A DNA stretch of 64,000 bases from a virus. The notes beneath the pieces are model-generated. The model did no database searches and was not told the origin of the DNA. It saw only the letters and a list, made by a program, of their open reading frames with translations. Positions 36,482 through 41,827 of this stretch are shown one piece after another. The stretch spans positions 11,240 to 75,239 of the IMG/VR virus record IMGVR_UViG_3300005529_000029. One strand, 5' to 3'. A program made the translations under genes and the position numbers. Each line of letters starts with the position of its first letter. Within the stretch, counting starts at the first letter, position 1.

Positions 36482-37630
36482 ATGATAAAGAATAATCCAG
36501 ATGCTCCGATGGAGTTCACATTAAAGAAAGAAGACTTCCTGCGAGAGTTAACGCTGATCCAGGGCGTCATTGAAAAGAAGAGCACGATCCCAATCCTCTC
36601 GTATATTGCGATCGCTGCAAACGAGATAGGTGAGGATGGCAAAATCACTTTGATTGGCACAGATATGGATTTAAGTCTGACATCGACATGTCCGGCGAAT
36701 ATCAAGAATGCCGGCGTCGTTACAGTATCTGCAAAGCGGCTATTTGAGATCGTCAGGAATCTGCCAGATGAGCCGATCCATATCAAATGGATCGCTAATG
36801 ATGGTATCGTCCTAACCTGCGCCAAATTCGTCTCCAAAGTCCTCGGCGCCGATCCAAATACTTTCCCGGCGATCGAGACAACTGAGCAGCCAGGTATCGA
36901 AGCGAATAGCAAGATTCTTGCCGATCTGATCGCCAGAACCTCATTTGCAATCACCACGGATGAATCTCGATATGCTCTTAATGGCGCTCTAATACTTCGA
37001 GAAGGAAAAAACCTCGTAATGGTAGCGACTGATGCGCACCGGCTTTCAGTAGCTCAATCTCAAGCTGAAGAACCATTAAAGGCTGGCCAGAAGTTACGGG
37101 CCTTGATTCCAAAGAAGACACTTTCAATGCTCTCAAAGTTATTGATAGGCATCGATGAGACAATCACCTTCATTGAAGATGGCAATCACTTCTTCTTCAA
37201 TATTGGAGAGCGAGTTCTAGTATCGAGATTACTTTCTGGCCAGTTCCCGAATTACGAGCTGGTTCTCCCGAAAGATAACAACAAGAAGTTGGTTGTAGAC
37301 GCCTCTAATCTTGGGAAAGCAGTTCGAAGGGTCTCTCTTATGGCAGATGAGCGTAGTCATGCGGTCAAGTTGTCAGTATCCGATAAACAGATCCAACTTG
37401 AGACTAGATCGAGCGAGACCGGCGAAGCAACTGAGATTCTTTCTGCAGAGTACGAAGGACCAGCTCTTACACTCGCATTCAATGCTCAATACGTGACTGA
37501 GTTGCTCAGTGTTATCAGTGCCGAGAAACTGGAATTCGCCCTGAAGGATGAACAGAGCCAAATCCAGATTCGTCCTATTGGCGAAGCAAAGATCGATCAC
37601 AAATACATCGTGATGCCAATGAGGTTATGA
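36482..37630 (+). CDS. dnaN: DNA polymerase III beta sliding clamp
   Basis: KKSTIPILS, GTDMD, DESRYALNG, VATDAHRL, GQFPNY, C-terminal IVMPMRL. Confidence 0.97.
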   Translation: MIKNNPDAPMEFTLKKEDFLRELTLIQGVIEKKSTIPILSYIAIAANEIGEDGKITLIGTDMDLSLTSTCPANIKNAGVVTVSAKRLFEIVRNLPDEPIHIKWIANDGIVLTCAKFVSKVLGADPNTFPAIETTEQPGIEANSKILADLIARTSFAITTDESRYALNGALILREGKNLVMVATDAHRLSVAQSQAEEPLKAGQKLRALIPKKTLSMLSKLLIGIDETITFIEDGNHFFFNIGERVLVSRLLSGQFPNYELVLPKDNNKKLVVDASNLGKAVRRVSLMADERSHAVKLSVSDKQIQLETRSSETGEATEILSAEYEGPALTLAFNAQYVTELLSVISAEKLEFALKDEQSQIQIRPIGEAKIDHKYIVMPMRL

Positions 37631-37633
37631 TTT

Positions 37634-37963
37634 ATGAGCTATTACGATTACGAACAGTCAAAGAAAATATCAAGCGATGATCCCCAATTTGCGGCATTAA
37701 TAATGGCTGCAATTCGTAAAGCCGATTCTAACAACGCTGAGAAGCTCGCAATGGCATTTCCCTTTATCTATGCTGAATTCCAAGCGAGATACCACGTTGC
37801 TGGTGGCATCCTTCCAGGCGAAAAAGTCACACCACCTGACGAAGATACTTGTGAGTTATCTTCTCCAATTAACCAAGCATCAGTTGAGCTAATCAACTCA
37901 ATCGTGCGGACAAAAATATCCAAGGAAGCAATCCTAAGAGACTTTGATGATGAGGAAACCTAA
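37634..37963 (+). CDS. Hypothetical phage protein
   Basis: ALIMAAIRKADSNNAEKLAMAFP motif. Confidence 0.75.
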   Translation: MSYYDYEQSKKISSDDPQFAALIMAAIRKADSNNAEKLAMAFPFIYAEFQARYHVAGGILPGEKVTPPDEDTCELSSPINQASVELINSIVRTKISKEAILRDFDDEET

Positions 37964-37975
37964 AGGAGCGATCTT

Positions 37976-38164
37976 ATGACAAAGAAGAAAGAGCTAGACA
38001 TCAATAATCCTGACATCGCAAGCATTGGTATCGAGATTGATTGCACATCTAAAGGTGGCCGGAGGGAAGCTCAGGCTGTCTTCAACTCCATTGATGCGAG
38101 TATTAAGAAGAAATTAAAGAGCCTGAAAAGATACAAAAAGAGACACGCAAATAAGGAGCGATAA
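37976..38164 (+). CDS. 62-aa paralog / mimic of the tape measure N-terminus
   Basis: DINNPDIASIGIEIDCTS vs TMP DINNLDIASIGIEIDSTS; VFNSIDASI vs VFDSIDQSI; AAGGAG RBS. Confidence 0.85.
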   Translation: MTKKKELDINNPDIASIGIEIDCTSKGGRREAQAVFNSIDASIKKKLKSLKRYKKRHANKER

Positions 38165-38166
38165 AA

Positions 38167-39810
38167 ATGTCGGCCATAATAGAAGTGCAAAAACCACAGC
38201 ATAGGAAAGAACGAGCTAACCCGGACTGGCCGGTTAAGGTCTACTCATATTGGATTGAGCCAATAGGCGATATCCCGGAATGGTTTTGGTTATTCCATGA
38301 TCATATGCAACTACTCTGGAACGATATGGTGATTGCGCATGATGCTTTTATTGACGAACGTGAATTCTCTGAAGAATCAGATGGGAAATGGGATACAGAT
38401 CGTAAACGGCTTGAATTCTCTGGCCTACGTGAGAAGCTCAAGAATGTGGCCAAGTCTAAAAAGGGTATTCTTCCTAGCTCATGCTATTATGAGGTTAGGG
38501 ATCGATTTCTCATCACGATGGGCAGATATTGGAATCCTGACTCCACACTAAAACGCAGACGAAACGAAACAAAGAATTTCGATCTTGGGCGACCTGGAAT
38601 GAAATTTGGTCGCAATAAAGTACTCATCCCACATGATTTGAATGCTGCAAATATCTCAACGTCTATTCTCTTTTCTAATAAAAAACCTCTCACCATTTTG
38701 CAGCGCACAAAACAACAGGGGCCGACGCGAGGAATTTTTGAGACACTCGGTTATAACTTTAACTTTCGCATCAATCTTCATCGGCCGATTCCAAATGGTA
38801 ATATCAAGCGTATCGCTATTGTCGGGGAAATGGTTAAACCATTTGGATGGCAGTGGCGACTGAACCTGACCATTGAAGAGCCACCAGTAAGACCTCAAAG
38901 GAAGAATGGTAGGGTTGCAGCAATCGACCTTGGATGGCGTTTAATGGACGATTGTATTCGAATAGGCGTGTTAGTTGATAACAGTGATAATGCTATTGAA
39001 CTATCCATTCCGCTGGATTTTGCGAATAATTCGCTAAGACGTCAAAGAGAGCATTTCATGGACGTGACCGATGCATGTCTTCCTATACATTCTATTCCAG
39101 ACATCTGGAAAGCTCAACAGGAGTCAGACCTCATCTTAGAAGTCTGCAAAAATCGTCTAACCGCTCTTATTCCTGAGCTTTTACCAAATAAGGTTGCATG
39201 GGATAAGGCTCGACATAAGAGTCTTATTAAGTTACTCAATACATTGCGGGAAGATCATCCAGAGAGTTCCGCAATTGCAGTTATAGAGCAGTGGCGTACG
39301 ACAAACTGGGTTCTACATAGAAGATGGCGGGCAGCATATGAACGATTCATGAGATGGAGGCGTGAAATCTACAGAGTCCTGGCTGCGGAGATTGCTTCTA
39401 CGTATGACGAGATCGTTTTAGAGGATCGTTTGAATCTAGCAGAGATGTCGAGAGACGAACAGGCACCACCAGCTATCAAAGCAAGTCAAAAATACCGACA
39501 CTGGACATCGCTTTATCTCTTTAAAGAATGCTTAAAATATGCGATGGATAAACAGCAAAAACTCATTATCGCGGGTAAAACTGCTTACTCAACAGCAACT
39601 TGCTCAACCTGTGATGGTAAGATTAATACCGATGCTTCACTCTATCTAACCTGTGCTAATGGGCATACCTTGGATCAGGATCTTAATGCAGCGCGAAACC
39701 TATTAAAATCATATCCAGAATGCGAGAGCCTCCCAGGGTTAGAGTCGCCGATTAGGCACTCGCAACTTTCTAAGTGCGTTAGGACGCTAAGTCTTTTAAA
39801 ATCACTATAA
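38167..39810 (+). CDS. cas12: Compact type V CRISPR effector (TnpB-derived, Cas12m / V-U1-like), 547 aa
   Basis: RuvC-I AAIDLGWR (D254), RuvC-II IVLED (E419), Zn finger C479xxC482...C496xxxH500, RuvC-III DQDLNAARNL (D505); array starts 9 bp after the stop. Confidence 0.9.
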   Translation: MSAIIEVQKPQHRKERANPDWPVKVYSYWIEPIGDIPEWFWLFHDHMQLLWNDMVIAHDAFIDEREFSEESDGKWDTDRKRLEFSGLREKLKNVAKSKKGILPSSCYYEVRDRFLITMGRYWNPDSTLKRRRNETKNFDLGRPGMKFGRNKVLIPHDLNAANISTSILFSNKKPLTILQRTKQQGPTRGIFETLGYNFNFRINLHRPIPNGNIKRIAIVGEMVKPFGWQWRLNLTIEEPPVRPQRKNGRVAAIDLGWRLMDDCIRIGVLVDNSDNAIELSIPLDFANNSLRRQREHFMDVTDACLPIHSIPDIWKAQQESDLILEVCKNRLTALIPELLPNKVAWDKARHKSLIKLLNTLREDHPESSAIAVIEQWRTTNWVLHRRWRAAYERFMRWRREIYRVLAAEIASTYDEIVLEDRLNLAEMSRDEQAPPAIKASQKYRHWTSLYLFKECLKYAMDKQQKLIIAGKTAYSTATCSTCDGKINTDASLYLTCANGHTLDQDLNAARNLLKSYPECESLPGLESPIRHSQLSKCVRTLSLLKSL

Positions 39811-39819
39811 ATTGCCGCT

Positions 39820-40050
39820 GTGACAACTCTTGCTCAACCGAGTCTCGGTTGAGACACTGCGCTGCCAATTCCTTGGCGGAAAGCTCAAAAAGTGACAACT
39901 CTTGCTCAACCGAGTCTCGGTTGAGACGTCTTGCCTCTGCTTCTCTCCTCGAGCCTTTCACTGGTGACAACTCTTGCTCAACCGAGTCTCGGTTGAGACA
40001 GCGGAGGACGCGAGCGACAGCCTACCCTAATCCGCGTGACAACTCTTGCT
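39820..40050 (+). CRISPR. CRISPR array: 3 identical 36-bp repeats plus a truncated fourth, three 36-bp spacers
   Basis: Repeat GTGACAACTCTTGCTCAACCGAGTCTCGGTTGAGAC at 39820, 39892 and 39964; 15-bp partial at 40036. Spacers 39856-39891, 39928-39963, 40000-40035. Confidence 0.97.
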
Positions 40051-40074
40051 GAATTTTATTAATGAATATATAAT
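40046..40074 (+). promoter_or_regulatory. Promoter whose -35 box lies in the truncated repeat
   Basis: TTGCTG (40046-40051), 17 bp, TATAAT (40069-40074). Confidence 0.6.
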
Positions 40075-40080
40075 TCTGCT

Positions 40081-40151
40081 GGTTATCATTGGGTTATCTT
40101 TTTGAACGAGAGTTTGACGGACCTAGGGCTTCGAAAGAGGCCCTTTTCTTT
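40081..40151 (+). ncRNA. Candidate small RNA (about 70 nt) with a partial anti-repeat
   Basis: TTGAACGAGAGTT (40102-40114) pairs 12/13 (one G-U) with repeat nt 6-18; ends in a terminator. Confidence 0.4.
40125..40151 (+). terminator. Intrinsic terminator
   Basis: AGGGCTTC-GAAA-GAGGCCCT followed by TTTCTTT. Confidence 0.85.
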
Positions 40152-40231
40152 CTCCTTTTCCTGTCTACATTTACATCTCTTTGTTGACATTCACACCCAC
40201 ATTAACCTAAAAAACATTTACAGGAGTTCTT

Positions 40232-41827
40232 ATGTCTCTTCTTAGCGACGTAAAACGAGCGCGTTCTTGTTCTGTGCCAATTATCAGGATTACGACCCCT
40301 GACCCAATCAATTTGATGTTGACGTTAGCTAATGATGGGGATCCTACCCAGCAACATACTGAAGCACCAAAAGTCGGTTGGGACTGCATTCGTGGGCATT
40401 TCCACCTGAACAAAGCCGGTGAATCCTGGATTAACTCAAAGCTGAGTATTCCCGATCCGAAGGATGCGAACAAATTCAATAAGACGAACATCGTCACAGC
40501 GCCCGAAGCTGTGGGAGTCCTATTATCGCTTCCGGAAAATAGTATAGCTGTAATGCTTAATGCCCATCGGTATCTGACCAATGATGCAAATGGCGCGCGG
40601 TTTATCCAGGTCCTGATGAATATCAGGGACCGGTTTAAGAATAATGGCCGAACTCTCTTCCTTCTCACAACCGATTGTCCTTTACCAATCGAGCTACAGC
40701 ATGACGTCGTGAGTCTCTCAGAAGATTATCCAGATGACAAAGCGCTAAAAGAGATCATCGAGCCAATCTTTAACGATGCAAAGCTCTCTCCGACCAATGA
40801 CATGGTTGAGAGAATTGTCGATGGGATTCGTGGATTACCGGCTTTTCCCGCTGAACAGGTGACAGCAATGGCAACGACCATTGGCAAAGGCGTCGACGTT
40901 GATCTTCTCTGGCGACTAAAAGAACAGCAGATCAAAAACATCAAGGGTTTACGGTTCGACACGTCCAGAGAAACATTTGACGATCTCGGTGGGCTCTTAG
41001 CCTGGAAGACCTTTACTCACCGGCTTCTCTCAGGGCGACAAAGATTCAAGCTAGTCGTCCGTCTTGAAGAGATTGAGAAAGCGATGGCTGGAGTTGGCGG
41101 CGATGGAAAACACGGTGATACATCGGGTGTCTCGGCCGGGATCCTCGGTTATCTCCTTGAAGTCTTCGAAGACTATGGCTGGACGGGAGCTTTACTTTTT
41201 GGGGTTCCGGGCAGTGGGAAGAGCGCGAGCAGTAAAGCACTTGGCAATACATTCGGAATCAAAACGATGGTCATGGATATTGCCGGAGCGAAAGAAAGTT
41301 ACGTCGGTGCATCAGAACAAAATGTCAGAGAGCAGGTCAAAGCAATTAAGGCAATCGGTGGTAATGACATTTTATTTCTAGCCTCGTGCAATGGACTTGA
41401 TGCTCTTCCACCAGCTCTAAAGCGTCGGTTCAAACTCGGCGTCTGGTTCTTCAATACTCCGACAAAAGAAGAGCGAGAGAGCATCTGGACTATTAACGTC
41501 AAGAAGTTCAGCCTGAATGAGAGCCAGGAACTCCCGGATCAAGACGGTTTGACCGGTGCAGACATCAGGAATATCTGCGAGATCGCGTATCAGCTTTCGA
41601 GTCCGACAGAGGAATGCTCTTTAGCTGAGGCAGCTCAGTACATTGTTCCAGTCTGCAAATCCGATCCGACTTCAATCACTCAGATGCAGACTCTTGCTGA
41701 TGGGCGATTCTTATCAGCCAGTTTGCCTGGGATCTATCGAATGAATCCAGAAGAAGAGATCGCAATTCCTGAGTCAAAACAATCACGTAGATTCGCGCAT
41801 GAATCCGATCCAGGTTTCACTTTTTAA
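40232..41827 (+). CDS. AAA+ ATPase (Ycf46-like)
   Basis: TFDDLGGL, LEEIEKAMAG, GVPGSGKS, SYVGASEQN, LPPALKRRF, LTGADI motifs. Confidence 0.88.
   Translation: MSLLSDVKRARSCSVPIIRITTPDPINLMLTLANDGDPTQQHTEAPKVGWDCIRGHFHLNKAGESWINSKLSIPDPKDANKFNKTNIVTAPEAVGVLLSLPENSIAVMLNAHRYLTNDANGARFIQVLMNIRDRFKNNGRTLFLLTTDCPLPIELQHDVVSLSEDYPDDKALKEIIEPIFNDAKLSPTNDMVERIVDGIRGLPAFPAEQVTAMATTIGKGVDVDLLWRLKEQQIKNIKGLRFDTSRETFDDLGGLLAWKTFTHRLLSGRQRFKLVVRLEEIEKAMAGVGGDGKHGDTSGVSAGILGYLLEVFEDYGWTGALLFGVPGSGKSASSKALGNTFGIKTMVMDIAGAKESYVGASEQNVREQVKAIKAIGGNDILFLASCNGLDALPPALKRRFKLGVWFFNTPTKEERESIWTINVKKFSLNESQELPDQDGLTGADIRNICEIAYQLSSPTEECSLAEAAQYIVPVCKSDPTSITQMQTLADGRFLSASLPGIYRMNPEEEIAIPESKQSRRFAHESDPGFTF

Follow-up and report, generated by a model that had tools for sequence, protein, structure and literature searches.

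The IMG/VR viral record IMGVR_UViG_3300005529_000029 (75,239 bp, about 79% complete by CheckV) was analyzed over bases 11240–75239, a stretch of 64,000 nucleotides (nt) referred to below as the window. It carries a gene for an effector of 547 amino acids (aa), directly followed by a short CRISPR (clustered regularly interspaced short palindromic repeat) array. Judged by sequence profiles and a predicted fold, the effector is a member of the Cas12m family (type V-M, formerly V-U1), in which it belongs to a divergent subclade. By analogy with characterized Cas12m proteins, it is reasonably probable that the locus works as a type V-M CRISPR system whose fixed guides serve RNA-guided binding and silencing of DNA.

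The open reading frame (ORF) contains the RuvC residues D254 (RuvC-I), E419 (RuvC-II) and D505 (RuvC-III), together with a CCCH zinc finger whose ligands, C479, C482, C496 and H500, are conserved in the family. A first-pass annotation of the window had described the same ORF, catalytic residues and zinc finger, and all of them were found at the positions it gave. In an alignment of 25 family members, D254 and E419 were at least 90% conserved and D505 was invariant. The D-E-D triad was kept in 129 of the 150 nearest cluster representatives (86%).

An exhaustive HMMER search returned 1590 cluster representatives, 104 of them (50%-identity clusters) at E < 1e-30. These relatives were mostly 500–560 aa long, matched over their full length and shared 28–36% identity with the effector. 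Apart from one protein of an Acidobacteriota metagenome-assembled genome, the nearest homologues were metagenomic singletons. A word-indexed homologue search returned the effector itself as the sole match, and a search with an N-terminal motif taken from a second family alignment gave no relatives in genome contigs.

The best PDB sequence match of the effector was 23vw_A (E 2e-17, residues 201–514), deposited under the name 'CRISPR-associated DNA-binding protein Cas12m' and itself D-E-D in the alignment. A family profile, built from the 25-sequence alignment of 529 positions, was also run against PDB. Nearly full-length matches were obtained with 23vw Cas12m (E 9e-64), UnCas12m4a (E 1e-35), Cas12m2 (E 4e-21) and GoCas12m (E 2e-16), and all five solved Cas12m sequences were matched over profile positions ~42–505 of 529 (~460 positions). 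TnpB, Fanzor, TranC and Cas12f chains matched more weakly and over the C-terminal RuvC/TNB part only. The name 'Cas12m4' had no match in the literature search. The best PADLOC model was Cas12u1, as V-M was formerly called (E 3.7e-33, residues 199–515 only). A published catalogue of 134 Cas12m representatives holds MBI4468182.1 (Acidobacteria, 570 aa), a protein sharing the characteristic N-terminal and WED motifs of the effector's subclade.

The AlphaFold2 model of the effector (predicted local distance difference test 83.9, predicted template modelling score 0.75) agreed with the compact bilobed fold of V-M effectors, in which a WED domain and a helical REC lobe bearing a coiled-coil insertion are joined to a zinc-finger/TNB domain and a RuvC domain that has a helical insertion. 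In a Foldseek search, the four best matches of this model were Cas12m2 and GoCas12m structures (E 3.5e-20 to 1e-15). VIA-align gave the longest alignments with Cas12m (Z 20–22, 445–467 aligned residues), compared with Z 18–20 and at most 361 aligned residues for TnpB. Based on the nearly full-length profile matches, on the PADLOC and fold matches and on the catalogue entry, the effector was therefore filed as a Cas12m member.

The closest structural counterparts of the model, MmCas12m2 and GoCas12m (PDB 8hhl, 8hio, 8pm4), share its order of domains, with a helical insertion likewise placed between RuvC-I and RuvC-II. They differ from the effector in sequence (12–16% identity), in carrying H-D-D in place of D-E-D, and in being about 50–60 residues longer, mostly in the REC lobe. 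The first-pass annotation had proposed a shorter-REC relative standing between TnpB and Cas12m. This placement was not upheld: 547 aa lies inside the published size range, the model aligns with Cas12m over many more residues than with TnpB, and MBI4468182.1 of the same subclade is already catalogued as Cas12m.

The explanation that the gene is an IS200/IS605 or IS607 TnpB working with an omegaRNA, the repeats being incidental, was effectively refuted. Single-sequence searches were weak, Pfam yielding only the Cas12f1-like TNB domain. The NCBIfam TnpB models and Pfam OrfB_IS605 and TNB gave partial C-terminal matches, the PHROG annotation read 'transposase', and TnpB structures reached Z 18–20, all of which would suit a TnpB. 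However, the TnpB models scored far below their curated cut-offs (NF040570, 46.5 bits against 100; IS607_TnpB, 41.9 against 350; IS200_TnpB, 26.2 against 425), and the protein is longer than the ~350–450 aa of TnpB. No Y1 transposase (tnpA), serine recombinase or tyrosine integrase was found in the entire record, and no second copy of the element in the genome. A regular repeat-spacer array with a Cas12m-type handle stands downstream instead, and the full-length sequence and fold matches are to Cas12m.

More generally, TnpB and Cas12f share with the effector a WED-RuvC-TNB core (Z 16–20) and the C-terminal profile matches, but align over ~100 fewer residues, lacking the REC and RuvC insertions. 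TnpB uses a long omegaRNA, and Cas12f a trans-activating CRISPR RNA (tracrRNA) and a dimer, whereas the phage locus has a repeat-spacer array and no insertion-sequence context. The first-pass view of a Cas12m-type effector with its own array on a tailed phage, and not a TnpB element, was thus borne out by profile, fold and context.

Assignment to Cas12f (type V-F) was also considered and rejected, as solved Cas12f chains matched the TNB region only (E 1e-7 or weaker), fewer residues were aligned and no anti-repeat was present. As a separate observation, the PADLOC profile PDLC01692, labelled Cas12f (CAS-V-F), scored nearly as well as Cas12u1 on a bona fide 23vw-like Cas12m (E 5e-107 versus 1e-111). 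The Cas12f label of this profile is therefore not discriminating and can mis-type V-M effectors as V-F.

The features of the locus are listed in Table 1. The array begins 9 nt after the cas12m stop codon. Its repeats recur every 72 nt and are 36 nt long, which leaves 36 nt for each spacer, and the truncated fourth repeat means that the array consists of three complete spacers. The three identical repeats, the spacer length and the 9-nt gap had been given correctly in the first-pass annotation, in which the truncated fourth repeat went uncounted. A degenerate terminal repeat is normal in CRISPR arrays. The hairpin downstream probably ends the transcript of cas12m and the array. Between the truncated repeat and this hairpin lies an AT-rich segment (40054–40124) with a perfect TATAAT; a proposed −35 box matches at 3 of 6 positions only and was not reported by the promoter scan.

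Table 1. Features of the cas12m locus and of the genes preceding it; positions are those of the window.
Feature	Position	Strand	Remarks
cas12m-family effector gene, 547 aa	38167..39810	+	ORF; PDB, profile, PADLOC and AlphaFold2 evidence
CRISPR repeat 1, 36 nt	39820..39855	+	GTGACAACTCTTGCTCAACCGAGTCTCGGTTGAGAC
Spacer 1, 36 nt	39856..39891	+	50% GC
CRISPR repeat 2	39892..39927	+	identical to repeat 1
Spacer 2, 36 nt	39928..39963	+	56% GC
CRISPR repeat 3	39964..39999	+	identical to repeat 1
Spacer 3, 36 nt	40000..40035	+	67% GC
Terminal repeat, truncated and degenerate	40036..40053	+	first 15 nt identical, then divergent; without the 3' hairpin
Terminator-like hairpin	40125..40154	+	8 pairs and T-rich tail
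Sliding-clamp homologue, upstream of cas12m	36482-37630	+	
109-aa ORF, upstream of cas12m	37634-37963	+	
62-aa ORF, directly upstream of cas12m	37976-38164	+	

The repeat carries a 3' hairpin, CTCAACCGAG-T-CTCGGTTGAG, and ends in AGAC, as had been described before; its RNA fold was calculated at −13.2 kcal/mol (z = −2.3). The 5'-GUGACAA start is shared with the published CRISPR RNA (crRNA) of ApCas12m, and CUGAGAC-type 3' ends with those of MsCas12m and TfCas12m. From shuffled sequences, zero chance matches were expected to the 23-nt 3' part of the repeat, and this 23-mer had no matches in IMG/VR or in the JGI metagenomes.

The crRNA of PmCas12m forms a pseudoknot of two interleaved helices. 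An alignment of nine repeats was made from the phage repeat, five viral repeats and the crRNA repeats published for Ms, Tf and Ap. All nine begin with 5'-GU(G/U/A)(A/G)CAA and have a 3' hairpin that closes at −3, with AC after it. Over the nine repeats, the two PmCas12m-type helices were 87.5% paired, compared with 22–49% in slid controls, and double-sided changes occurred in 7 of 8 pairs. In the phage repeat, the entire 3' helix is formed (5 pairs, CUCAA/UUGAG, extendable).

No anti-repeat longer than 13 nt was found anywhere in the 75-kb record. A stretch at 40102–40114 pairs with the repeat at 12 of 13 positions, a frequency no higher than background (0.156 per 100 nt and strand), and Rfam gave no match in 37500–40600. 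On this computational evidence, the guide is a single crRNA with no tracrRNA.

Adaptation genes are likewise missing. The first-pass annotation had noted no cas1, cas2, cas4 or tnpA in the window, and this held for the entire 75,239-bp record (about 79% complete), in which neither Cas1, Cas2 nor Cas4 was found.

Whether a Cas12m with an intact D-E-D triad cuts DNA was evaluated against published data. The first-pass annotation had started from the premise that characterized Cas12m proteins have a degenerate RuvC. This premise was wrong: Cas12m clades 3 and 4 are D-E-D (PMC10442227), and four D-E-D orthologues were assayed by Bigelyte et al., namely MsCas12m (536 aa), TfCas12m (567 aa), ApCas12m (628 aa) and UnCas12m (583 aa, from an IMG/VR scaffold) (PMC11013384). 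None of the D-E-D, H-D-D and N-D-D orthologues assayed gave double-stranded DNA (dsDNA) ends; all eight Cas12m proteins tested, including the four with D-E-D, bound dsDNA and left it uncut, and neither cis nor trans cleavage of DNA or RNA was shown by purified MsCas12m (PMC11013384). The closest solved structure, 23vw, which is D-E-D as well, was likewise deposited as a DNA-binding protein. Since the four assayed D-E-D proteins did not cut, an intact triad is neither new nor a predictor of cutting.

Accordingly, it was considered unlikely that the effector actively cuts, as an RNA-guided nuclease or nickase whose D-E-D site would degrade the DNA of competitors or of the host. The triad and zinc finger are intact, the triad is widely conserved among the nearest representatives, and the subclade, to which none of the assayed proteins belongs, has a divergent N-terminal lobe, all of which would agree with cutting. 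The four negative dsDNA results count against it, as does purified MsCas12m, which lacked collateral cleavage as well, and conversion of the Cas12m2 H-D-D triad to D-E-D did not restore cleavage (PMC10442227). D-E-D is equally conserved in the clades that tested negative, so its conservation does not predict cutting; it points to a selected metal-dependent role, not specifically to cutting. We consider it rather improbable that this divergent D-E-D subclade, unlike the tested clades, kept nuclease or nickase activity and that the effector would thus be a 547-aa, tracrRNA-free, self-processing, phage-borne DNA cutter.

For RNA-guided binding and silencing, the following course of events is suggested, largely by analogy with characterized Cas12m proteins. 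The effector gene, the three-spacer array downstream on the same strand and the terminator would be transcribed with the phage replication genes. The effector would cut its own pre-crRNA inside the repeat independently of RuvC; pre-crRNA self-processing has been reported for Ms, Mm and Pm Cas12m, and was retained by the MsCas12m D274A mutant (PMC11013384). The resulting crRNA would consist of a handle of ~30 nt, derived from the repeat and folded into a hairpin or pseudoknot, and a guide of ~17–20 nt, with no tracrRNA. The ribonucleoprotein would then recognize a protospacer adjacent motif and form a stable R-loop, and tight binding, not double-strand cleavage, would block transcription or replication of the target. 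Likely targets would be a mobile element in competition with the phage or DNA of the host, with a higher GC content than that of the phage.

Across three studies, the locus (37600–40400) turned up in contigs of two 2017 soil runs and two 2024 mine runs. Contigs from the 2017 soil runs (two studies) and from a 2024 mine run agreed exactly in cas12m and in all three spacers. Across the runs there were no differences in cas12m, the spacers covered were identical, and a single G>T change, at 38110, was present in one mine run. No variant array junctions were seen in the soil and mine contigs. Among the listed runs carrying the locus none was an RNA run, which bears neither way on expression. Given the absence of adaptation genes and the unchanged spacers of independent samples, the array is static and its guides behave as specificities that are fixed and inherited.

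Searches for targets were performed in several collections, with exact 22–24-mers in IMG/VR, genomes and metagenomes. The first 24 nt of each spacer had no match in IMG/VR, spacer 3 (22 nt) none in GTDB genomes and spacer 2 (22 nt) none in JGI metagenomes. When the array as a whole was compared by blastn with reference phages and plasmids, only chance matches (E ≥ 3) came up, and the longest spacer match within the 75-kb record was 13 nt. The proposal that the phage uses the system against competing elements or host genes is plausible by analogy, and no target was found for it. The GC content of the spacers exceeds that of the phage genome (45.7%) and of the cas12m gene (43.1%); with three spacers, this weakly hints that the guides derive from foreign DNA that is GC-richer than the phage.

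The same observations could describe a decaying or inert remnant, a frozen mini-array with no current targets and no benefit to the phage. In favor of such a remnant are the small number of spacers, the truncated last repeat, the identity of the spacers across samples and years, the missing protospacers in the collections searched and the lack of adaptation genes. However, the ORF runs intact over 547 codons with all family-invariant residues retained, the repeats are 100% identical to one another, and the gene stands in a tightly packed operon with a terminator past the array. The truncated repeat is of the kind usual at array ends, and the protospacer searches were limited to exact short words and to collections other than the host genome. 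A remnant was thus judged improbable.

Still less probable is a role in phage gene regulation, in which guides or handles would time expression by steering Cas12m to DNA or mRNAs of the phage itself or to a promoter of the host. Cas12m is a natural transcriptional blocker and the gene is located in the early/replication module, both of which would fit such a role. But no spacer matched more than 13 nt of the 75-kb record, which is about 79% complete and leaves the host uncovered, and no solitary copies of the repeat were found elsewhere in the window by sequence (up to 3 mismatches), by hairpin pattern or by covariance model.

Several observations weigh against RNA-guided binding and silencing by a Cas12m of the usual kind. 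The N-terminal 200 residues of the effector are not matched by the V-U1 model, its identity is 26% to the nearest 23vw-like protein and 28–36% to the nearest metagenomic relatives, and all assayed Cas12m proteins lie outside its own subclade. No protospacer was found for any of the three spacers in the collections searched. Omura et al. suggested that D-E-D clades might cleave (PMC10442227), and retention of the triad in most of the nearest representatives implies a selected metal-dependent role. With regard to the handle, the second helix of the phage repeat has 2 of 3 pairs when read in the consensus register and four (ACUC/GAGU) when read in a register of its own. Its 3' helix extends to a perfect 9–10-bp hairpin with a 3-nt loop, which is unusual and would compete with the first helix of the pseudoknot; the handle may therefore fold differently from the consensus pseudoknot.

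When compared with known D-E-D Cas12m proteins (MsCas12m, TfCas12m and UnCas12m; PMC11013384) and with 23vw (577 aa), the effector shares their compact WED-REC-RuvC-zinc finger layout and triad, as well as the motifs LHRPxP, DLGWR, YRxxAAxI and DQDxNAAxNL. The loci are also alike in a 36–37-nt repeat that starts with GU, ends in GAGAC and has a hairpin or pseudoknot handle, in an array directly downstream, and in having neither a tracrRNA nor adaptation genes. In contrast, pairwise similarity to 23vw is limited to residues 201–514, and the N-terminal lobe is shorter than in Ms and Mm Cas12m (D254 compared with D274 in Ms and H317 in Mm) and is not recognized by the V-U1 model. The phage repeat also differs from those of D-E-D Cas12m in its unusually long perfect hairpin with a 3-nt loop, and the array in having three spacers and a truncated repeat.

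A close precedent in biological setting is MvCas12m of myxophage MV-1 (bioRxiv 10.64898/2026.09.14.751636). It is likewise a virus-borne V-M effector with D-E-D and an adjacent array, with no cas1, cas2 or cas4, no tracrRNA and no protospacers identified. MvCas12m is longer (610 aa) and has eight spacers, compared with 547 aa and three spacers here, and the two phages are unrelated.

Nine related IMG/VR loci were also fetched, all of them distant (23–26% identity). In all four locus types with sequence available downstream of the gene, a CRISPR array with 36–37-nt repeats lay directly downstream. The protein of one type, L006, is closely related to the solved 23vw (E 8e-103). This type is a 36-kb viral contig represented by five near-identical IMG/VR contigs, with a 558-aa 23vw-like Cas12m and a 15-repeat array (L006:7041–8103). 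Its spacers 6 and 10 share a 10-nt 3' end, GGCGCGCATG; no protospacers were found for these two, and the two L006 spacers searched matched their own arrays only. A related viral locus (L011:7158–7914) has two arrays in succession, whose repeat variants (GTGGAAAGGGTATCTCTGGACC... and ATGGAAAGGGCATCTCGACGCC...) differ by compensatory changes in both pseudoknot helices.

The host of the locus is an uncultured tailed phage of soil and mine habitats. The record encodes a tape measure protein, a minor tail protein, a major head protein, a head protease, a portal protein and a large terminase, in addition to a Mom-like protein, a DNA methyltransferase, a replication initiator and a sliding clamp. The large terminase is at most 38% identical to that of any reference phage, and no tRNA genes were found in the window.

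The genes upstream of cas12m (36482..38164) lie on the same strand and are packed tightly, with intergenic gaps of 2–12 nt, and the promoter scan gave no plus-strand promoter-like site directly upstream of cas12m. Given the short gaps between these same-strand genes, cas12m is probably co-transcribed with the phage replication module. The 62-aa ORF just upstream of cas12m is similar to the N-terminal 47 residues of the tape measure protein encoded by the phage itself (4154–4294, minus strand; 55% identity, E 1e-11) and looks like a free-standing copy of this N-terminus sitting in the early/replication operon. On the other side of the array, a gene for a 531-aa AAA-family ATPase (40232–41827, plus strand) starts about 80 nt past the terminator.

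With respect to novelty, plasmids are enriched in type V-M systems and some prophages carry them as well (PMC11656645), one of the orthologues assayed in 2024 came from a viral scaffold (PMC11013384), and the D-E-D, adaptation-less phage MvCas12m of 610 aa was reported in September 2026 (bioRxiv 10.64898/2026.09.14.751636). Since a D-E-D triad in Cas12m, small size, a viral carrier and the lack of adaptation genes have all been described already, the finding is incremental, and the locus is a new example of a known system, not a new kind. The remaining interest lies in the divergent subclade, to which none of the assayed proteins belongs, and in the unusual hairpin of the handle.

The effector adds to the Cas12m family a D-E-D soil-phage protein that is divergent and compact (547 aa), and it represents a large subclade known almost only from metagenomes. 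The subclade bears on a question left by published work, namely whether D-E-D serves metal-mediated DNA binding only or hidden catalysis in a Cas12m that does not cut. The three-guide array, frozen and unchanged over habitats and seven years, presents the CRISPR guides of a phage as a fixed, heritable specificity and not as adaptive immunity.

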